Both the position numbers and the translations under genes were made by a program. Source: an uncultured Patescibacteria group bacterium (GTDB taxonomy: Bacteria > Patescibacteriota > JACMRA01). From it: a stretch of DNA of 62,989 bases. Shown here piece by piece: positions 4,164 to 31,285 of the stretch. Location of the stretch: positions 1 to 62,989 of the forward strand of contig CALIJC010000009.1 in assembly GCA_938017575.1 (NCBI GenBank). The letters run 5' to 3'. Each line of letters begins with the position of its first letter. Within the stretch, counting starts at the first letter, position 1. Below the pieces are notes generated by a model. It was not told the DNA's origin. It saw only the letters and a list, made by a program, of their open reading frames with translations, and ran no database searches.

Positions 4164-4727
4164 TTAGTGAATTACATGAGCCCGGTTGTGAGCCCTGAAT
4201 ACGTGATATCGTCCAGCATCATCGATCACGAAATAGCAGTTTTCATCGTATGTACGATTGCTTTCATAGGGTCCGATGTACCTATTCCGAGAATAGAATC
4301 TATTGTACTGCTGGTCTCTACTTACTCGATAGTATCTATCTCTATTTGAAAGTGCGTCAAATAGTGAGCTAAGCAGAATCCTCTTCAGCTTACTAGGTCG
4401 TTTTCTGTGTGAGTGAATCACACGGCGATGCTCAGTTGGGCAATACCTTGTACCATGTCGGTAAAAGCAATCTTTTTGTCTAAAAACTCCTCTTCTTCGA
4501 TTAAAAACTCTCCGGCGAATTCGGCGGCTTTTTTGCTGCCTTCTTTTTAGGTTGTGAGCATAGTTCTCACACCATTGGTGGTTGTTATTCCGATCCATAC
4601 AACTCGAATAAATCGAGAAGTAATTTTCACGTCGTTCGTGAGCATTTACTGAAGTAGTAAGTAGAATGGAAGGTAGTGTGATTCCAGCTGTAAACAAGAG
4701 GGCAAGGATTGATTTTGTAAGTTTCAT
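4164..4727 (-). CDS. Secreted, extremely basic Arg/His/Tyr-rich protein with 6 Cys (hypothetical)
   Basis: Signal peptide MKLTKSILALLFTAGITLPSILLTTSVNA, SD ggag upstream, own promoter. The region is visibly GC-richer than its flanks. Confidence 0.6.
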   Translation of the reverse strand: MKLTKSILALLFTAGITLPSILLTTSVNAHERRENYFSIYSSCMDRNNNHQWCENYAHNLKRRQQKSRRIRRRVFNRRRGVFRQKDCFYRHGTRYCPTEHRRVIHSHRKRPSKLKRILLSSLFDALSNRDRYYRVSRDQQYNRFYSRNRYIGPYESNRTYDENCYFVIDDAGRYHVFRAHNRAHVIH

Positions 4728-4771
4728 CGAAAAGCTCCTAAAATAAAATCAAAATAAAACCTTAGAACTAA

Positions 4772-4800
4772 TATCTATCTGATTTAATCAATTTTGTCAA
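4772..4800 (-). promoter_or_regulatory. Promoter TTGACA-N17-TAGATA for the 4164..4727 gene
   Basis: The reverse complement reads TTGACA aaattgattaaatcaga TAGATA, followed by a leader with an aggag SD. Confidence 0.55.
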
Positions 4801-4868
4801 AAAAACACATAAAATTAATGCTACCTTTATTCAAAGTAGCATATAGGAAAGGGCGGAAGAAGCTAAAT

Positions 4869-5237
4869 TTAGTCAGCTCTTCTGTATTCCTTCCCTTGGA
4901 TAATAATAACATCGGGCGGGGAATCAATATCCCCTTTTGGAAAAAAACGCTCGACAGTTTCTTCCCTTCTTGGCAAAATCCGAATTGTTTTGTTGGAATT
5001 CCGCCCTTCAAAGACGAAGGGGCAGCCTTTGCCGCCATCGGCGCAGTGCCGACCAGCGTTGTCAAATTTTGGCTTTCTCGTTCGCCCTGAATTGCCAAAA
5101 GAAGGCTTCTGCACTCGGCCTGAGTTTCCGAACCCAGAGAAGGGCTTCCCTTTCTGGTTATGCCCAGCAAGTGCTGGAGAAGATACAGAAAAAAGAGCCA
5201 AAAAAACAATAGGTAGAAAAATTTTTACGTTTTTCAT
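4869..5237 (-). CDS. Small secreted basic protein with internal (K)P(S)FG(F)GNSGR repeats (hypothetical)
   Basis: Signal peptide MKNVKIFLPIVFLALFSVSSPALA. Repeats KPFSGFGNSGRV / KPSFGNSGRT / KPKFDNAGR. Chosen over the overlapping ORFs because it has the signal peptide and a matching promoter. Confidence 0.6.
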   Translation of the reverse strand: MKNVKIFLPIVFLALFSVSSPALAGHNQKGKPFSGFGNSGRVQKPSFGNSGRTRKPKFDNAGRHCADGGKGCPFVFEGRNSNKTIRILPRREETVERFFPKGDIDSPPDVIIIQGKEYRRAD

Positions 5238-5275
5238 TATACAATCCCCAATTAAAAATTACGTTTACCTCTTAT

Positions 5276-5304
5276 ATAATAGCCTAAAAAGAGGCTTTTG
5301 TCAA
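5276..5304 (-). promoter_or_regulatory. Promoter TTGACA-N17-TATTAT
   Basis: The reverse complement reads cTTGACAaaagcct...TATTAT. It shares the extended context AGGCTTTTGTCAAG with the promoter at 45384-45412. Confidence 0.6.
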
Positions 5305-5315
5305 GCCCAAAAGAC

Positions 5316-5340
5316 AACAAAAAACCACCCCGAAGGGTGG
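5316..5340 (-). terminator. Rho-independent terminator of the pilin-like gene
   Basis: ccaccc cgaa gggtgg hairpin. On the minus strand it is followed by tttttttgttg. Confidence 0.7.
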
Positions 5341-5362
5341 TTAAATTCTGGTAAAACTAATT

Positions 5363-5797
5363 CTAATTATTACCTCCACCAATATCGACAACACCAGTAG
5401 ATCCTACCAGTCCTCCGATAAGGCTGACGATTGTATAGGCTACGATTGCTAATACTAATCCAATCAAAGCGTTTTTAACAATAGTTTGACCTTTTTTAGC
5501 ATTATCATCATTACCACCTGGGTTAACTACGAATAGGAAACCTCCATATACCAAGAATAACACAGCTAGTGCACCAACGATAAAGGTTACAAAGCTAGCT
5601 ATTCCCAAAATGAAATCAGCAATTGTTCCCTGATCTGCATCTGACAAATCTGAGTCTCCAGTTACTGGACATCCAGTGCTAGGACAAACTTGTGGGATTC
5701 CTTGAGCTGTAGCTCCAACATTACCAAGAGCTGTTACAGCAACGAACATAAATACACCTAAAGCGGCGCCTAAAATAATTTTCTTTAAAGTTGACAT
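5363..5797 (-). CDS. TrbC/VirB2-like 'T4SS pilin' family protein (single domain)
   Basis: Signal/TM segment, then two TM helices flanking YGGFLFVVNPGGNDDNAKKGQTIVKNALIGLVLAIVAY. This is the pattern typical of CPR T4SS_pilin-type proteins. Confidence 0.7.
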   Translation of the reverse strand: MSTLKKIILGAALGVFMFVAVTALGNVGATAQGIPQVCPSTGCPVTGDSDLSDADQGTIADFILGIASFVTFIVGALAVLFLVYGGFLFVVNPGGNDDNAKKGQTIVKNALIGLVLAIVAYTIVSLIGGLVGSTGVVDIGGGNN

Positions 5798-5919
5798 ATA
5801 TAATATATATTATAATTTGAGTTTACCATATTTAACTGTTTTGACGAGCAAAATCTGTTTTATGGATTAGGTGGATTTTAATGAAGATAAATTTAGTTGT
5901 CAACAGAAATGCTTACTGG

Positions 5920-7062
5920 CTACTGGATTTTATGGTTTTGATAATATTTACTCAGACCAGCTAGTCCAATCATAACTGCGTTATCGCCAGTCAAACTCAT
6001 TGGAGGCAATAAAAGTGGTAAATTTGAATCAACGTTTTGAATATATTTTCGTAGCATTGGGTTGGCAGAAACACCACCAGAAAGACCTATAGATTGAATA
6101 TTTCTATCAATAATTGCAGTTGATAATTTGTTTGTCAGTTGTCTGATAATTACAGTTTGGGCCGAGATACAGACTTTTTTAATAAAATCTAATTTTGGAT
6201 TTAGTTTCGAATTTGAATCTACTAGTAATTTTAATTCTGATTCGGTTAATTTTTGTTCAATGTCAAACCCTGGAATTTGAGGTTTTTCTAAATAATTCCT
6301 AACACTAGTTTTTAGCCCTGAAAACGAATAAGCAATGGTTTTATTTTTGCTCATTCCAATTGGAAAATTCATTGGGTTATCATAGTTTTCACCAGCAATT
6401 TTACTAATCCAAACACCTCCTGGGTAAGGAAGCCCTAGCATGCGACCAATTTTATCAAAACTTTCACCAGCTGCGTCATCCAGTGTTGCCCCAATAATTT
6501 CCCACTCGCTTGCAGAATCCAAAACCAAAATCTGAGAGTTTCCGCCGCTAACAATCAAATGCAGGTGAGGGAATATTTCATTATCTTTTTGAAATTTATG
6601 GTTTTTATCAAAAAAACAGCTAATCAAATGACCATTTAAGTGGTTAATATTGTTTATAGGAAATTTTTTTCCAGATTCTTTTTCTAAATAATAACGCAGT
6701 GATTTAGCAAACTCTATCCCAACACGCAGTGCAGATTTCAAACCAGGTTCAGTAGTTACAAAAATCTCTTGTAAATTCTCAGTTAGGTATTTAATTTTTT
6801 CATTAAAATCTCCTGGGATTTCTAGTTTCATAACTAATTCACGAAAAACAAAGTGAATTTGCTTACTATGTTCACGAGCTCCGATTTCTGGCACAACTCC
6901 ACCATATTTTTTGTGAATATTAATTTGCGACGAAATAATGCTAGATTTAACTTCGAAAGAATTTATATAATCGTAAAAACTATTTCCGGAAAAATTCTTA
7001 TCACCCTGGAGAATACAAATCGAAGTCTCATCGCAGCTTGTCTCAATAGCTATGAATAACAT
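5920..7062 (-). CDS. tsaD: tRNA N6-adenosine threonylcarbamoyltransferase
   Basis: IAIETSCDETS N-terminus and GGVSAN motif. I prefer the ATG at 7062 (MLFIAIE) over the TTG at 7098, because a perfect TATAAT sits 6 nt upstream of that ATG. Confidence 0.9.
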   Translation of the reverse strand: MLFIAIETSCDETSICILQGDKNFSGNSFYDYINSFEVKSSIISSQINIHKKYGGVVPEIGAREHSKQIHFVFRELVMKLEIPGDFNEKIKYLTENLQEIFVTTEPGLKSALRVGIEFAKSLRYYLEKESGKKFPINNINHLNGHLISCFFDKNHKFQKDNEIFPHLHLIVSGGNSQILVLDSASEWEIIGATLDDAAGESFDKIGRMLGLPYPGGVWISKIAGENYDNPMNFPIGMSKNKTIAYSFSGLKTSVRNYLEKPQIPGFDIEQKLTESELKLLVDSNSKLNPKLDFIKKVCISAQTVIIRQLTNKLSTAIIDRNIQSIGLSGGVSANPMLRKYIQNVDSNLPLLLPPMSLTGDNAVMIGLAGLSKYYQNHKIQ

Positions 7063-10500: not shown

Positions 10501-11190
10501 AGGTTTGGTTGGGTCTTTTGGAGAAAATTGAACCGATTTAGGTCCATCAATAAATGCCACATTGTCTTTATATGCAGACACAACCAGACCTGGAGTTTCT
10601 TTGGTAGTTTTTTTAATATGTTCAAAAAGAGTTTTAGGCTGTTTTACTCCATCAATAATAAAATCTCCATTAAAGATTTTGTGCCTACAATGCTCTGAGT
10701 TTACCTGAGTAAAGCCAAAAATCTCACTGTCTGTTAGGTTTCTGCCTATTTTTTTAGCAACAGATTCTAGATAATCAACCTCATCATCAGTTAGGGCTAG
10801 ACCTTCTTTTTTTCTATAATCAGCAATATTATCAATACTGAGAATGGGTTCTTTTTGAATCTCTAATACGAATATGTTTTGAGTTAGGTTTTCAATAACG
10901 CACTCTGTCATTGGGTCATGTCTTGAGTGGTTTTTAGAATCAATTTTGGTGTATTTTTCAACCCTTTTGATGTCACTCAAATTCATATTGTTAATCACCT
11001 CAACAACATTGGTACTCCATGGAGAAACAGTTTCAATCCTTGGGCCAACAAAAATTCCCTCAATAGTTTCTGTCTCATTTTGCTGGGTTTCAAATAACCA
11101 TTCTAGTTTTTGTAAATCTTTTTGACCTAGTTTTTTTCCTGTCTCTACTACAAAATAATCTTTCCCGCGCGCCCCAAAAAATAATATCAT
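7516..11190 (-). CDS. purL: Phosphoribosylformylglycinamidine synthase, single-chain large type
   Basis: About 1224 aa from the ATG at 11190 (MILFFGARG). Contains the NSEHCRHKIF motif and AIR-synthase-like repeats. The C-terminal GATase carries GVCNGCQLM and HGEG. Confidence 0.95.
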   Translation of the reverse strand: MILFFGARGKDYFVVETGKKLGQKDLQKLEWLFETQQNETETIEGIFVGPRIETVSPWSTNVVEVINNMNLSDIKRVEKYTKIDSKNHSRHDPMTECVIENLTQNIFVLEIQKEPILSIDNIADYRKKEGLALTDDEVDYLESVAKKIGRNLTDSEIFGFTQVNSEHCRHKIFNGDFIIDGVKQPKTLFEHIKKTTKETPGLVVSAYKDNVAFIDGPKSVQFSPKDPTKPSYFSESDFESVISLKAETHNFPTTVEPFNGAATGSGGEIRDRMAGGIGSIPLAGTAVYMTSYPRFGRSFENLTKPRDWLYQSPEDILIKASNGASDFGNKFGQPLICGSLLTFENTQDGNVTGFDKVIMQAGGIGFGKKDQAFKAKPKKGDLIVVLGGDNYRIGLGGGAVSSVGGGELENTVVLNAVQRANPEMQKRVSNTIRAFVEMTTNPIISLHDHGAGGHLNCLSELVEEVGGEVYIDKLPIGDLTLSAKEIIGNESQERMGLIVDPRDINMLTEIAQRERSPIYVCGQVTGDMRLTFVDRETGDKPIDWELGDMFGNPPKTILEDNATTTEYDELEFDQKNLEKYLESVLQLEAVSNKDWLTNKVDRCVTGKVAKQQTCGELQLPLNNLGAMTIDYSSQKGIATSIGHAPAAGLIDSANGSKLSVVKSLTNLVWAPLTGGLGTVSLSANWMWPAKNPSQNARLYRAVESLGDFCVELGVNIPTGKDSLSMKQTYDDGQVVLSPGSVIISACSEISDVSKVIEPGIDTSIDSLIYYIDITKSDFELGGSSFAQVLGGVGSKSCTVDNPEYVAKTFKTVQKLIKNNLIAAGHDVSAGGLITTLLEMCFANQNGGLDIDLTEINSDIINTLFSEKPGLVVQVEKKHTNSFTDILKTSSIDFYEIGGTSNSRELQITSGKELHKLDIDFYRNIWNKTSHNFDTLQTNREQANIRQSNLGTQPLKFAFPKEYISKRADLPKIENKPKAGIIREKGINGDREMAYGLYMAGFDVKDIHMTDLISGREDLSELNMIVFTGGFSNSDVLGSAKGWAGSFLYNDKAKKALDKFYSRPDTLSLGVCNGCQLMMELGLIEPEYKENHLKMDHNDSQKFECGFVNVDIPKTNSIILSSLSGSRLGIWVAHGEGKFNLANESDYDIAIKYSYPDYPANPNGSEFSAAGLVSKDGRHLAMMPHIERSLFSWNWANYPKTNNQDQITPWAMAFVAAREWIEKST

Positions 11191-11268
11191 AAAATTGCTT
11201 ATAGATAGATTAGGGCGAAGCCGCAAATAATTGTCAATATTACCTATACAAGGGTAGGTACTAATAAT

Positions 11269-11598
11269 CTATAGAAAAACTGCAATTATAGTAGTAGTAA
11301 TCACCAAACAACCTAGTATATTCTTTTTTGTTTTTGATAACTCTTTGTTTCTCCAAATGACTCCTAGCAGTAAAATCAGAGCCAGCACTAGTAGTTTCAT
11401 CATTACCTTTAATCCGTTAATCTCATCAATCTTTAGTGATGTTAAAACAATACCAGAAATCAGCTGAATTATAGAAGCTAAATAAAATAGTCGAGGTAAT
11501 TTCATTTTTTGATCTTTTTTAATCATCCCTAGAGATGAAATTACACCAGCAAATCCAAACAGATGAATAAACCTAAATGATAAAATTAATAATTCCAT
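11269..11598 (-). CDS. Small integral membrane protein (hypothetical)
   Basis: 109 aa with about 4 hydrophobic helices. ATG start. Confidence 0.45.
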   Translation of the reverse strand: MELLILSFRFIHLFGFAGVISSLGMIKKDQKMKLPRLFYLASIIQLISGIVLTSLKIDEINGLKVMMKLLVLALILLLGVIWRNKELSKTKKNILGCLVITTTIIAVFL

Positions 11599-11693
11599 AT
11601 TTATGTTATGAGTAAAATATTATTATATTGTCAATTGACCGAAGTTATGCTATATTTATCGAGTTCGTTGTGAATTTCGTTGGAGAAGAAAAC

Positions 11694-11942
11694 GTGAAGA
11701 AGCAATCTATTATTTTATTTTTGCCATTACTTCTAATAACAGCCTTATTTTCTAGCTGTTCAAGTGAGCAGCAGGTGAACCCGCTGAACATAAACAAAGC
11801 AGGGGTGAATTCTGAAGAGCTAAAAAAAGAGAAAGGGACATCCAACTGTCAGTATACCAAGAGACAACTAGATGAAGTTAAAAAATCTGGATATACTAGT
11901 GAATTGAGACAGGCTGAGAAGCTAGTCGAAGAGTCTTGCTAA
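11694..11942 (+). CDS. Small lipoprotein (hypothetical)
   Basis: GTG at 11694 preceded by ggaga. Lipobox LFSSC within KKQSIILFLPLLLITALFSSCSS. The track ORF begins earlier, at 11628. Confidence 0.5.
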   Translation: MKKQSIILFLPLLLITALFSSCSSEQQVNPLNINKAGVNSEELKKEKGTSNCQYTKRQLDEVKKSGYTSELRQAEKLVEESC

Positions 11943-11982
11943 AGTAGCCAAATTCATCAAGTAGATTCATGCGCAGAGTTTA

Positions 11983-27063: not shown

Positions 27064-28599
27064 TTATCTAGCCCTACGTTTTTTTATATTTTGAATTGAC
27101 TCTATCCACCAATTTGATCTTTGGATGTAGTTAGTAAAGTCCTTGAATGAAGTTCCACATGGTGAAAATAGTACATTTAAATTATATTCATCTTTATTTA
27201 AAATAGCCTGACTTGATTGGTTATCATTAATTGAATCAAAGTTATTCACGAGCTCTTCTAACCATTTCGTAAATCCAGTGCGGATTTTTGCCAGGGATTC
27301 AAAATTAGCAGTCATTGATTGTTTAAAATCTTCATTGCTAGCTTTTATATCAATACCCATTTTTTGGTAAATACAATTTAGTAAATGCTCACCAACTTCA
27401 CCGCAATAGTTTACTTTATGTAGTTGATTCTTTTTTTGTACATCTAAAATTGCTTCAATCAAATTGCTCAGATCTCCACCTTTATCCAGTCCATCAACAA
27501 TTAACCATAGATAATCGCCTAACTCAGAATAGCTCAAAACGCCGGCTCTAACGGCTTCTGGCTCTGTAGCCGCCCCATCATCGATAAAATTAATATTCAG
27601 TTTTTTTTGAGTATCTTTGAGTAATATTTCAGTTGAAATTGTCTTAACTAATTGCTGTCTATGAGGTAGGTTACTAAAGCTCTTCATTTCTTTTTTAACA
27701 AACTCAGGTTTAGCGTTTATTCCAATTATTTTAATTAATTCCAAAGCAATCGATAAATTTTGGTAATTATGATAACCGCGCAGCTCAGGAATTTTATATT
27801 GCTCTATTATATTTTCGACATTTTCTTTGGTGATAATATTCTGATTGTTTATTGTATTTTCTCCAAGCCTTTCCTGGAAATCCTTTAAAAATACTATCGT
27901 ACCAGTATTATCTTGGTGTATAAAAATATTATCTTTCGAGGCCCAGTATTCTTTTTTGGTCTTATGCTGATCTAAATGGTCTATATAATAGTTAGTAATT
28001 CCAGAAATTTTCGGACTGGTTTTACTATATCCCAAATCCTCTAGCTGGAAAGAAGATAATTCAATTACAAAAAATACATCATCAGAAATATCAGCATCTA
28101 GTATATCCCAAAAAGTATAGGGGGAAATATTTGTTGTATTCCCGCAGTAATATGAAGTGTATTGAGTATCTTTATTAATTAGGTGATTTACAATCCCACA
28201 TGTTGTACTTTTGCCTTTGGTACCAGTAATCCCTATGATTTGATCTTTAAATTTCTCTATAAAAAATACTAAATTTGATAAAACTCTATCATCACCTTTG
28301 AGACTTCGAAAATCTTCTAATTCTTGAATTTTACTCCATATTCCAGGTGATTTGAATACATATTCCAGTTGTGGGTTTTCCAATACTGATAAATAGTTAT
28401 CACCAGCAAAGATATTTTCTGGGTCAAAGCCCATATTAACAAAATCTGCCAAGTCTCTTTGGTCGGCTAATAATATATTTGATTTCTCAAATTTAAAAAC
28501 ATTCACTAACCAATCTAAAAATTGTCTATTTTCCTGACCCAGCCCCAGTAAACAGATTTTATCATTTTGTTGTAAATTTTTCAGTTTCTCTAGATACAT
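27064..28599 (-). CDS. Mur ligase family protein, MurD-like
   Basis: GITGTKGKSTT ATP-binding motif and N-terminal Rossmann-like LLGLGQENRQFLDWL. 511 aa, longer than typical MurD. Confidence 0.7.
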   Translation of the reverse strand: MYLEKLKNLQQNDKICLLGLGQENRQFLDWLVNVFKFEKSNILLADQRDLADFVNMGFDPENIFAGDNYLSVLENPQLEYVFKSPGIWSKIQELEDFRSLKGDDRVLSNLVFFIEKFKDQIIGITGTKGKSTTCGIVNHLINKDTQYTSYYCGNTTNISPYTFWDILDADISDDVFFVIELSSFQLEDLGYSKTSPKISGITNYYIDHLDQHKTKKEYWASKDNIFIHQDNTGTIVFLKDFQERLGENTINNQNIITKENVENIIEQYKIPELRGYHNYQNLSIALELIKIIGINAKPEFVKKEMKSFSNLPHRQQLVKTISTEILLKDTQKKLNINFIDDGAATEPEAVRAGVLSYSELGDYLWLIVDGLDKGGDLSNLIEAILDVQKKNQLHKVNYCGEVGEHLLNCIYQKMGIDIKASNEDFKQSMTANFESLAKIRTGFTKWLEELVNNFDSINDNQSSQAILNKDEYNLNVLFSPCGTSFKDFTNYIQRSNWWIESIQNIKKRRAR

Positions 28600-28649
28600 G
28601 TAATATGTATCACTAAAGGGCTATCCCTTGTCAAGTATCTAATGCTAAA

Positions 28650-29588
28650 TTACCCTCCCAGGTTTGTGTTCTGTACGAAAAATACAATCAATTGAGAAAT
28701 AGTAACTGCTAGTAAAACAACAATTAATCCAATAATTGCATTGTTTAGCTTGTCTTTGGCGCTTTTTACCTTACCTTGGTCTCCTCCAGAGAAAATATAG
28801 TCATATCCTGCCCAAACTAAGAAAAATACAGTCAAAACCGCAGAAACAGGAATCAAAAAATTGTTCACGATAGTTGAGATAATTGAAACAATACTGCCTG
28901 TTTCCAAACTTAGCTGACTTTCTTGTGTACCAAAGGTAGATTCCACCAAATTCCGAATAGGTGTGGCAATTAATACAATCACAAGTCCAATAACACCATT
29001 GGCAATAGTCTGTTTACCATCTTCTTTGGCACCAGGTAGGGTAGATAGGAAAAATTTATAACCACCCCAAATAATTGTCAGCACAGAAACCAGTCCTGCA
29101 ATAGCAGTCAAAAATCCAATCACAGCGTTAATAATATTTTCTGTAGGCTCTGCATTGATTCCTTCGGCTGTAGTGCCCCGAAGTGTATCTTGAATAAACG
29201 TTAAAATAACACCGTCACCGCCACCGCTAACACCATAAGCTAGGAGGATCAAAGCGTAACCTATTACAGCAGAAGAAATTGCTCGCCGGCCACTGGTTTT
29301 TTGATCGAATCCACCCAAAAAATATAAATAACCACCCCAAATCAAAACCAGAGTTGCAAATATCGGTGCCAAACTAAACAAAAAGCTAACAATCGCACTG
29401 GCTAAATCATTTTTGCAAGTAGCGGTTTCAACCAAACAATCAAACGGAAGTAAATTCAATGCACCTGCGTCCTGAGCGTGAGCATCCACACTACCAGAAA
29501 TCATCGGTGCTAAAAGAGCTATTACAACAACAAACAATACCAAGGGTTTGTGTAAAAATTTATTTATTTTGCGAATTATATTAGTCAT
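28650..29588 (-). CDS. Triplicated TrbC/VirB2-like 'T4SS pilin' domain protein
   Basis: Signal-like N-terminus from the ATG at 29588 (MTNIIRKINKF...). Three successive units of [TM - W(G/A)GY.(Y/F)(F/L/I) - loop with K/R - A(V/I)IG..(I/V).L - TM]: LIWGGYLYFLGGFDQKTSGRRAISSAVIGYALILLA, IIWGGYKFFLSTLPGAKEDGKQTIANGVIGLVIVLIA and LVWAGYDYIFSGGDQGKVKSAKDKLNNAIIGLIVVLLA. Confidence 0.7.
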   Translation of the reverse strand: MTNIIRKINKFLHKPLVLFVVVIALLAPMISGSVDAHAQDAGALNLLPFDCLVETATCKNDLASAIVSFLFSLAPIFATLVLIWGGYLYFLGGFDQKTSGRRAISSAVIGYALILLAYGVSGGGDGVILTFIQDTLRGTTAEGINAEPTENIINAVIGFLTAIAGLVSVLTIIWGGYKFFLSTLPGAKEDGKQTIANGVIGLVIVLIATPIRNLVESTFGTQESQLSLETGSIVSIISTIVNNFLIPVSAVLTVFFLVWAGYDYIFSGGDQGKVKSAKDKLNNAIIGLIVVLLAVTISQLIVFFVQNTNLGG

Positions 29589-29592
29589 AAAA

Positions 29593-30117
29593 TTAGAATG
29601 TGAAGAAATCAGAAACATTTGTAGTACCAAGACTTTCAATACCCAGAACCTGTAAAACCGTAAAAACCAACATATAAGAACTGATAACTATTCCAAGAGC
29701 CATAACTGAATTCTGAATATCTCTTCGTGCATCCAAAATCATTCTCTCGGTATTATCACCAATTCCACCATAGATGTATTTTAATCCACTTACAATTAAT
29801 GTGATTCCAAAAACGTAAAAAACCAACGAAGCCATAAACCCATAACCTCTGATCAAAACACTAGGAAGTACTGCCAAAGACAGCGGTTGAGCGCCACCAT
29901 CACCGTCCGATGTACAGGCAGGGTCCAGTAGTGGGGTAAAACTAGTAGTTACAAAAATATCAGTAATTTTAATATCTTTTGTCTCCGTACAAGCTGCTGG
30001 GTCTGAAAATTGAGCATTAGCAGTTAAATTACTAAACAAACCAAAAGCCAAAAACATCAACCCCAAGATTGCCACAAGTTTTTTCGAGGTTAAACGCATT
30101 TTTGAAATGATAGTCAT
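29593..30117 (-). CDS. TrbC/VirB2-like pilin family protein (single, divergent domain)
   Basis: From the ATG at 30117 (MTIISKMRLTSKK). Signal peptide ..LTANA, then GLKYIYGGIGDNTERMILDARRDIQNSVMALGIVISSY. Confidence 0.6.
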   Translation of the reverse strand: MTIISKMRLTSKKLVAILGLMFLAFGLFSNLTANAQFSDPAACTETKDIKITDIFVTTSFTPLLDPACTSDGDGGAQPLSLAVLPSVLIRGYGFMASLVFYVFGITLIVSGLKYIYGGIGDNTERMILDARRDIQNSVMALGIVISSYMLVFTVLQVLGIESLGTTNVSDFFTF

Positions 30118-30127
30118 ACTTTTTTCT

Positions 30128-30156
30128 AATATAAATAAAAATGTCACATAAGTCAA
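30128..30156 (-). promoter_or_regulatory. Promoter TTGACT-N17-TATATT for the pilin gene pair
   Basis: The reverse complement reads TTGACT tatgtgacatttttatt TATATT agaaaaaagt ATG. Confidence 0.5.
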
Positions 30157-30205
30157 TTGACATTATGCTTTTCTTGTCCAAAGCTTGGCCATAAATAAAC
30201 TAATC

Positions 30206-31285
30206 ATGATCTATATCTATATTGTTCTAGGGTTTAGTTTCGCATTATCTTTTCTTGGATCTAGGTTGTCGATTTTACTGGCAAACAAATTGAATATCGT
30301 AGATGATCCAAAGTTCGAACCTACCCGAAAAAAACAAAAAACCCCAATTCCACTTTTGGGAGCTAGCGGTTTTATTATTATCGCTACAATTTTTTCATTA
30401 TTAACTTGGCTAACCTATATATTTGATTGGTTCGGAGTAGGTAGTTCGCTATATACAAACCTAGAAGGTGTAAATTTTGGCTGGATATTGGTTTCCGTAA
30501 TCATATTGCTGATAGGAGGGTTTATTGATGATAAATATAGGCTCAAAGCCAAATGGCTAGCTATTCCAATCACAATTGCCCTGCTAATTACAATATTTTT
30601 AGGAGGGCTGCAAATCGAAGCTCTTTCGTACCCTTTTGATTCATTCCTACCTCAAAATCAGTTTCTACCTCCGCTGCTTAGCTTTTTATGGCTTGGTCTA
30701 TGTGTTTCAGCAACCAAATTCTTAGACGGCCATGATGGGCTAGTCACTAGCATGGGTTTTGTGACTTTTTTGGTTATCGCCTCAGTTAGTCTTTTTGATA
30801 ATGTTTTCCAGCCTTTTACTGCTATTTTATCATTAATCTGGGCATTTTCTTTGCTTGGATTTTTACCTTTCAATTTCCCAGAAGCCAAAAGCTATTTAGG
30901 CGAGGGAGGTTCAGAAATAGTCGGTTTTATGATTGGAGTTTTGTCGATTCTGTCGGGAGCCAAAGTTGCCACCAGCAGTATGGTTATTGGCTGGTTTATA
31001 ATCGATATTATTTTCGTAATCTTGCTGCGAATTTACCAAAAAAAGAACCCCCTAAAAGGGGATAGACTACATTGGCATTTCCGATTGTTAGACATGGGAA
31101 TGAGTAAAATCCAGGTACTTGTATTAACTACAATATTAATTCTAATTACAGCCCATGCTGGTCTAATATTCCCAACAAACTGGAAATTATGGGTCATCAT
31201 CTCACAAATATTTTTCTTGGTTATAGTCTTTACTATTTCAATAGTTCAAACCAAATCAAAGAAATTAACCACGCAGGTTAGATAA
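30206..31285 (+). CDS. Polyprenyl-phosphate sugar-phosphate transferase, MraY-like (glycosyltransferase family 4)
   Basis: GGFIDDKYRLK, KFLDGHDGL, GEGGSEIVGF and C-terminal LHWHFRL (compare MraY HHHFE). Multi-TM. I prefer the ATG at 30206. MraY versus WecA is not fully resolved. Confidence 0.65.
   Translation: MIYIYIVLGFSFALSFLGSRLSILLANKLNIVDDPKFEPTRKKQKTPIPLLGASGFIIIATIFSLLTWLTYIFDWFGVGSSLYTNLEGVNFGWILVSVIILLIGGFIDDKYRLKAKWLAIPITIALLITIFLGGLQIEALSYPFDSFLPQNQFLPPLLSFLWLGLCVSATKFLDGHDGLVTSMGFVTFLVIASVSLFDNVFQPFTAILSLIWAFSLLGFLPFNFPEAKSYLGEGGSEIVGFMIGVLSILSGAKVATSSMVIGWFIIDIIFVILLRIYQKKNPLKGDRLHWHFRLLDMGMSKIQVLVLTTILILITAHAGLIFPTNWKLWVIISQIFFLVIVFTISIVQTKSKKLTTQVR

Follow-up and report, generated by a model that had tools for sequence, protein, structure and literature searches.

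The stretch of DNA analyzed here, which we refer to as the window, is the 62,989-nucleotide (nt) contig CALIJC010000009.1 (C9) from the draft genome of an uncultured, ultra-small Patescibacteria group bacterium (assembly GCA_938017575.1), which comprises 1.04 Mb in 78 contigs at 78% completeness and a GC content of about 35%. We focused on a minus-strand gene whose 312-residue product carries three tandem units related to TrbC/VirB2 pilins of type IV secretion systems (T4SS), and which we therefore call polypilin. In the direction of transcription, a partner gene encoding 174 residues (29593-30117) is followed after 4 nt by the polypilin gene (28650-29588) and, after a further 50 nt, by a MurD-like gene (27064-28599). 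No terminator was predicted between these three genes, and co-transcription of polypilin with the murD-like gene is possible. The features of the polypilin and its partner are as follows.

28650..29588, minus strand: polypilin gene, 312 residues, signal peptide and three VirB2/TrbC-like hairpin units as indicated by Pfam, NCBIfam and AlphaFold2; the open reading frame (ORF) spans 28650..29639 on the minus strand, with the start ATG at 29588 and the stop TAA at 28652-28650
29478..29588, minus strand: putative signal peptide, about residues 1-37, MTNIIRKINKFLHKPLVLFVVVIALLAPMISGSVDAHA followed by Q after the probable cleavage point
29157..29432, minus strand: unit 1, residues 53-144 (envelope of the unit hidden Markov model, HMM), with IWGGYLYF, loop DQKTSGRR and AVIGY
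28908..29165, minus strand: unit 2, residues 142-227 (unit-HMM envelope), with IWGGYKFF, loop STLPGAKEDGKQ and GVIGL
28659..28913, minus strand: unit 3, residues 226-310 (unit-HMM envelope), with VWAGYDYI, loop SGGDQGKVKSAKDK and AIIGL; a distinct C-terminal subtype
29593..30117, minus strand: partner gene, 174 residues, ATG at 30117, reading frame open to a TTG at 30156

Homology of the polypilin to VirB2/TrbC pilins is evident from profile searches. The protein matched the Pfam family PF18895 (T4SS_pilin) with E=2.7e-31 and 107.9 bits (cut-off 26.6) and PF04956 (TrbC) with E=1.5e-16 and 60.8 bits (cut-off 27.9), in each case over three separate stretches. This bears out the original prediction, which had been made from the DNA alone and had proposed three tandem TrbC/VirB2-like units with the motifs W(G/A)GY, K/R and A(V/I)IG; these motifs are found in all three units. 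A six-frame search of the genome likewise placed the three PF18895 matches within one open frame that contains no stop codons. Further, a match of 2.7e-11 and 43 bits (cut-off 40) over two stretches was obtained for NF045849, an NCBIfam family of pilin-like proteins from Mycoplasma integrative and conjugative elements (ICEs). A search of PHROGs returned no match and thus no link to phages.

Hydropathy analysis and AlphaFold2 (AF2) modeling agree on a signal peptide (AHA/Q, the slash marking the cleavage site) followed by three helical hairpins, in line with the units of two transmembrane helices that had been expected. The signal peptide contains a hydrophobic segment at residues 16-34 by hydropathy and is modeled as a helix from residue 2 to 30, after which a low-confidence stretch follows; an AxA/Q-type cleavage site is kept among polypilin homologues. 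The modeled hairpins comprise helices 62-91 and 94-118 for unit 1, 147-181 and 187-219 for unit 2, and 230-265 and 271-307 for unit 3, connected by linkers of about 28 (units 1-2) and about 10 residues (units 2-3), with a pLDDT of 70.5 for the model. The predicted layout of export signal, two hydrophobic helices and short charged loop is that of a classical pilin with the hairpin pattern repeated three times, so that the protein, with three units in 312 residues, departs from the small single-hairpin format of the TrbC/VirB2 family. When 40 units of 12 proteins are compared, the inter-helix loop is where basic residues concentrate, with one lysine conserved at 88%, and acidic residues are located in flanks and linkers. 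This charge pattern fits an arrangement with the loops inside and the linkers outside.

The repeat architecture is old. Pairwise identity among the three units is 24-31%, and at the DNA level the only repeat between units is a 23-nt motif encoding WGGY, found at a spacing of 270 nt. A recent tandem duplication was considered and rejected on these grounds, and the restriction of DNA similarity to this short motif points to an old duplication.

The partner protein consists of a signal peptide (ANA/Q), an ectodomain of about 45 residues with two conserved cysteines, one diverged hairpin (residues 81-116 and 123-157 in the AF2 model) and a conserved tail ending in SxFF. It reached only E=0.045 against PF18895. 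A profile built from partner orthologues aligned to the unit profile with 96.6-96.9% probability and E of about 1e-10 (hhalign), which supports the earlier proposal that the upstream gene encodes a diverged fourth pilin unit; in addition, the partner HMM matches polypilins at 1e-9 to 1e-23. Partner and polypilin thus form a tandem array of two pilin genes in which three of the four units are fused. In nearly all of 22 related loci the partner adjoins the polypilin on its upstream side, the exceptions being the genomes G011, with an 845-residue polypilin and no separate partner, and G005, with a pair of polypilin genes. The partner gene is the sole constant neighbor of the polypilin among these loci. 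Two variations on this arrangement were seen: in some relatives the partner is enlarged to 422-472 residues with a large ectodomain rich in Cys and in Thr/Pro (L036:192-1460; L021 of G006, 10528-11946), and the 845-residue polypilin of G011 (L025, 7521-10058) has a long N-terminal extension.

To place the fusion in a phylogenetic frame, 30 related genomes were sampled, 18 of them from the same family and one from the same order. A multi-unit open frame was present in 16 of the 18 family genomes and in the single genome of the same order; the remaining two family genomes (88% and 68% complete) gave single-unit matches only. The units are accordingly not separate genes in relatives, and the fused form is kept across the family. 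Close homologues of 212-530 residues all match both PF18895 and PF04956, and relatives carry between two and five units as counted by the unit HMM. In a maximum-likelihood tree of 116 units, a single clade (support 100/96) brings together the C-terminal units of the full set of 32 proteins. First units, including unit 1 of the window protein, mostly group together, while internal units reflect lineage-specific duplication. The single C-terminal clade and the grouping of first units indicate that the fusion predates the family and that the units are position-specific and not interchangeable. The window contains one further pilin unit far from this locus:

5363..5797, minus strand: single-unit T4SS_pilin gene, 144 residues, in a housekeeping neighborhood

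Its match to PF18895 (2.8e-10) agrees with its earlier assignment as a fifth unit, and in the unit tree it branches as sister to the C-terminal clade. Elsewhere in the phylum, families mostly have separate single-unit genes arranged in rows, some of which include two-unit ORFs.

The original prediction had called covalent triplication unusual. This holds for the searchable literature but not for sequence space, where fused pilins are common in metagenomes. A HMMER search over 1.84 billion representative proteins (50% identity clusters) gave 6034 matches at E<=1e-3, 231 clusters at E<=1e-10 and 60 at E<=1e-30. Among 164 retrieved proteins, unit counts ranged from 1 to 15, with the maximum in a protein of 1775 residues. 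Metagenome proteins with 10-15 units are P0100 (the 1775-residue protein), P0085 (1147 residues), P0098 and P0150. Some longer homologues (P0004, P0005, P0006, P0007 and P0009) bear a low-complexity tail rich in Ser, Thr and Asn with a conserved (S/G)LPTN or PNLN C-terminus; this tail, which is not present in the window protein, may be a sorting or modification signal. We found no publication on fused pilins in a literature search that included full-text queries for fused, concatenated and tandem pilin domains. Arrays of separate pilin genes, with no mention of fused units, are described in the Southlakia study (PMC10633639), in a 2025 T4SS review (PMC12857230) and in a survey covering 3035 Patescibacteria genomes (PMC12102498).

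The original prediction had noted that the window has no genes for VirB4, VirB6 or a coupling protein. The window indeed contains no VirB4, but T4SS genes are encoded elsewhere in the genome. The only strong VirB4 lies at C31:2084-4252 on the minus strand; it is divergent from dnaA (4559-6016, plus strand) and is followed by an HU gene, and no other T4SS genes are found on this 8.7-kb contig. A location of VirB4 near dnaA and the origin has been described for Patescibacteria (PMC12102498). A PrgI/VirB3-like protein is encoded on C25. Two ATPases resembling type IV coupling proteins (T4CP) share the domains TrwB_AAD_bind, TraG-D_C and T4SS-DNA_transf: one at C32:31570-33306 (minus strand; 578 residues, Lys-rich tail, TrwB_AAD_bind at 4.4e-13) and one at C43:16100-18745 (plus strand; 881 residues, N-terminal membrane helix). 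Proteins with TraG-D_C are present in 20 of 20 family genomes with one to four matches each, often as one protein of about 450-700 and one of about 820-940 residues. The single T2SSE ATPase of the genome is located on C48. Together with the pilins, VirB4, PrgI and the T4CP-like ATPases are candidate parts of a putative T4SS resembling the mating-pair formation class FATA (MPF-FATA).

The VirB4, PrgI and T4CP-like genes are scattered, each among housekeeping genes, and such scattering is the rule in the family. In the single-contig genome G018, VirB4 lies at 1.03 Mb, PrgI at 1.06 Mb and the polypilin at 0.86 Mb, with neighbors such as EF-Tu, DnaN, DNA ligase and RRF. A housekeeping neighborhood is therefore no argument against a T4SS function in this family. 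In other lineages, fused pilins do occur inside T4SS loci. The two-unit fused pilin P0027 (locus L028) is part of a complete T4SS cluster, where it adjoins genes for TrbL_3, PrgI, TraC-like, VirB4 and hydrolase (glucosaminidase) proteins, and two further genomes (G022 and G025) contain two-unit ORFs inside pilin arrays 7-9 kb from virB4.

Based on this analysis, we favor the reading that the polypilin is a covalent block of pilus subunits for a patescibacterial T4SS, to which we assign a probability of roughly 50%. The pseudo-oligomeric membrane or filament subunit suggested in the original prediction would likewise be a plausible role. The polypilin would be exported via Sec as three diverged hairpins arranged head to tail, each probably inserted such that the Lys-rich loop faces the cytoplasm and both ends lie outside. 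Because the hairpins would be N-out/C-out, the linkers would be found on the outer face; head-to-tail fusion of units with this orientation is topologically allowed. In all solved conjugative pili the termini point outward and a charged loop lines the lumen (10.64898/2025.12.18.695078), and by analogy the linkers would come to lie on the outer surface of the pilus tube with the loop lining its lumen. In the current view, new subunits come from pilins stored in the membrane and are added at a pentamer of VirB6, and PrgF, a VirB2-like protein, is required for Gram-positive conjugation (10.64898/2025.12.18.695078). Polypilin and partner would serve as structural subunits of a chromosomal T4SS related to monoderm conjugation systems, whose candidate components are the VirB4, PrgI/VirB3-like and T4CP-like proteins encoded at scattered sites. 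The polypilin may enter a pilus-like conduit as a row of three non-equivalent subunits that follow one another on a single helical strand, and the partner could be a minor subunit or one that initiates or caps the structure. We infer an arrangement along a strand rather than within a five-fold layer because unit numbers range freely from 2 to 15. In Southlakia, the only patescibacterium amenable to genetics, epibiotic life requires VirB2-like pilins (PMC10633639); arrays of pilin genes are common in Patescibacteria (PMC12102498).

Several points weigh against this proposal. The polypilin itself lies outside any T4SS cluster, with the ATPase genes on other contigs, and no T4SS gene was found within about 8 kb of the polypilin at 14 loci from the same family or near it. 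A VirB6/TrbL platform was not detected in the genome of the window, which is 78% complete. When the TrbL_3 protein of L028 was used as query, faint matches to large polytopic proteins were obtained in relatives only; these are not supported by Pfam and have no counterpart in the assembly under study. Extraction of a six-helix protein from the membrane is mechanistically harder than extraction of a two-helix pilin, and to our knowledge no filament has been demonstrated for any patescibacterial VirB2-like protein. How the units pack against one another is not reliably captured by the AF2 model (pTM 0.44). Foldseek comparison of the polypilin and partner models with the PDB gave generic helical matches only (E>0.05), and PDB profile searches with full-length and unit alignments gave no pilin match; we do not count these two nulls as negative evidence since helical hairpins make poor search objects.

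The strongest competing explanation, which we consider to have a minor but real share of the probability, is that the polypilin evolved from pilins into a stationary protein of six helices that never leaves the membrane and acts as a platform, channel or scaffold of the secretion machine, perhaps in place of the undetected VirB6. Searches with the TrbL and TrbL_3 families found no homologue in any of five family genomes, one of them the single-contig G018, as such a replacement would predict. This null is weak because the TrbL_3 search was equally silent in all control genomes, and the polytopic proteins with faint TrbL_3 similarity in relatives remain candidates for a conventional platform. 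Non-equivalent, position-specific units, a conserved partner and the compact helical hairpins of the AF2 model would all suit a fixed multi-pass protein. On the other hand, L028 encodes its two-unit fused pilin alongside a clear TrbL_3 protein, and a unit number that varies freely between 2 and 15 would be odd for a fixed scaffold.

A somewhat less probable alternative takes its cue from the gene neighborhood, which had been described as a site between murD-like and mraY-like genes:

27064..28599, minus strand: MurD-like Mur ligase (TIGR01087, Mur_ligase_M)
30185..31285, plus strand: WecA-like GT4 phosphosugar transferase, divergent from partner and polypilin (PF00953, 5.9e-24)

Here, the polypilin would be an envelope protein unrelated to T4SS in which the hairpin is no more than a general-purpose membrane module; co-transcribed with murD and next to a WecA-like gene, it would have a part in the synthesis of the cell wall. 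The polypilin locus is indeed flanked by a MurD-like and a GT4 gene. The MurD-like protein matches TIGR01087 (murD) over its full length at 2.6e-51, below the cut-off, and of the four Mur ligases of the genome, the other three being on other contigs, it ranks as the best candidate for MurD. For the GT4 protein, WecA (TIGR02380, 5e-20) is a far better fit than MraY (TIGR00445, 1.4e-6), and a second GT4 gene at C57:2470-2991 is the likelier MraY. With the GT4 gene divergent and WecA-like, the locus is not a dcw-type mraY-murD cluster of adjacent, co-oriented genes. The polypilin shares the strand of murD across a gap of 50 nt and no T4SS gene is close by, as an envelope function would have it. 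Among 16 related loci, murD lies downstream of the polypilin in six and a divergent GT4 gene upstream in six. In most relatives, however, this adjacency is gone while the pair of partner and polypilin persists. The peptidoglycan neighborhood was partly misnamed and is only loosely conserved. All T4SS genes of the family are likewise found in housekeeping neighborhoods, and more distantly related fused pilins reside inside T4SS loci, both of which speak against a function apart from T4SS.

Three further observations concern this region. The 50-nt spacer (28600-28649) contains a perfect TTGACA at about 28635-28630, located about 18 nt before a TACATA just upstream of the murD ATG and not listed by the consensus scan; murD may thus also have its own promoter. 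In two related loci dnaA lies within 5-7 kb of the polypilin. In one of the relatives, G018, an inserted rve-family transposase (L012, 8350-9405) separates the WecA-like gene from partner and polypilin, with dnaA 5 kb downstream.

It is also conceivable, though improbable in our view, that the polypilin is a polyprotein precursor. Once exported, it would be cut into its units, for instance by signal peptidase downstream of each outward-running second helix, releasing three different free pilins in a 1:1:1 ratio. In classical VirB2/TrbC pilins, both ends undergo processing. With its N-in/C-out orientation, the second helix in every unit would resemble a signal peptide, and unit 1 ends in small residues (AYG/VSG). 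Set against this, the second helix is not followed by a conserved AxA-type site: the end of unit 2 reads ATPIRN, and homologues are variable at this position. Further, the predicted helices continue through the candidate cut positions and the linker between units 2 and 3 comprises only about 10 residues. Finally, an assembly or frameshift artefact merging three adjacent pilin genes, which might be suspected given that patescibacterial pilins have typically been described as tandem arrays of separate genes (PMC12102498), is refuted by the uninterrupted open frame, by multi-unit orthologues assembled independently from many samples and in many genera, and by linkers conserved in register.

The genetic code of the genome is standard. 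Submitter labels on relatives include Candidatus Gracilibacteria, SR1, Patescibacteria group and Paceibacterota, and recoding of TGA was considered because of the Gracilibacteria and SR1 labels. It was rejected, as 505 of 589 long frames are free of TGA and the remaining TGAs are located at ORF ends or within spurious frames; genome-wide, TGA serves as terminator in 27 of 547 long ORFs. On C43, a few frames of 530-650 residues contain five to six in-frame TGAs when read through and may be spurious frames, pseudogenes or foreign DNA.

If the polypilin is indeed a block of pilus subunits, a more far-reaching model can be tentatively drawn, which we regard as less likely than the block itself: polypilins in general would be covalent protofilament segments, and conduits would be built from blocks of multiple non-equivalent hairpins (three here, up to 15 elsewhere) with the partner starting or capping them. 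Six or more helices would then be extracted from the membrane at once, and the order of subunits along the filament surface would be genetically fixed, neither of which has been described for any conjugative-type pilus. Provided that these proteins build pili, the natural fusion would constrain models of pilus assembly, since neighboring units would have to be placed side by side with their termini on one face and the machine would have to accept a six-helix substrate. The fusion also represents an experimental handle, as linker-spanning peptides or tags would reveal exit from the membrane. The fused form and its partner are a core gene pair of a family-level lineage and belong to a class of hundreds of sequence clusters.

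Among known systems, the Mbov_0395 family (NF045849) of Mycoplasma ICEs shares the pilin-like hairpin and stems from conjugation systems of wall-less monoderms. It has one module of 80 residues and resides on a mobile element, whereas the polypilin is chromosomal, has three units and lies outside any ICE context. Classical TrbC/VirB2 pilins (PF04956; RP4 TrbC, Agrobacterium VirB2) and PrgF resemble the polypilin in their signal peptide, two long hydrophobic helices and short charged loop, and each of the three polypilin units matches the TrbC family above the Pfam cut-off. A classical pilin consists of one unit of about 70-120 residues, has its gene within a T4SS operon and is in some cases cyclised, while in the polypilin three units are linked C to N, and the protein shows no significant sequence or fold match to solved pilin structures. 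The polypilin also resembles the pilin arrays of Patescibacteria (PF18895), such as the essential series of pilins in the T4SS locus of Southlakia epibionticum (Wang et al. 2023, PMC10633639) and those in the survey of Quinonero-Coronel et al. 2025 (PMC12102498), which comprise 2-11 pilin genes. They belong to the same hairpin family and the same phylum, and the genome studied here has the same kind of VirB4 beside dnaA. Diverged paralogous units are used together in both cases, with 24-31% identity in the polypilin compared with a mean of 25% within arrays (PMC12102498). In contrast to these arrays, the units of the polypilin are joined in one polypeptide, encoded at a locus detached from virB4 and accompanied by a dedicated, diverged partner gene.

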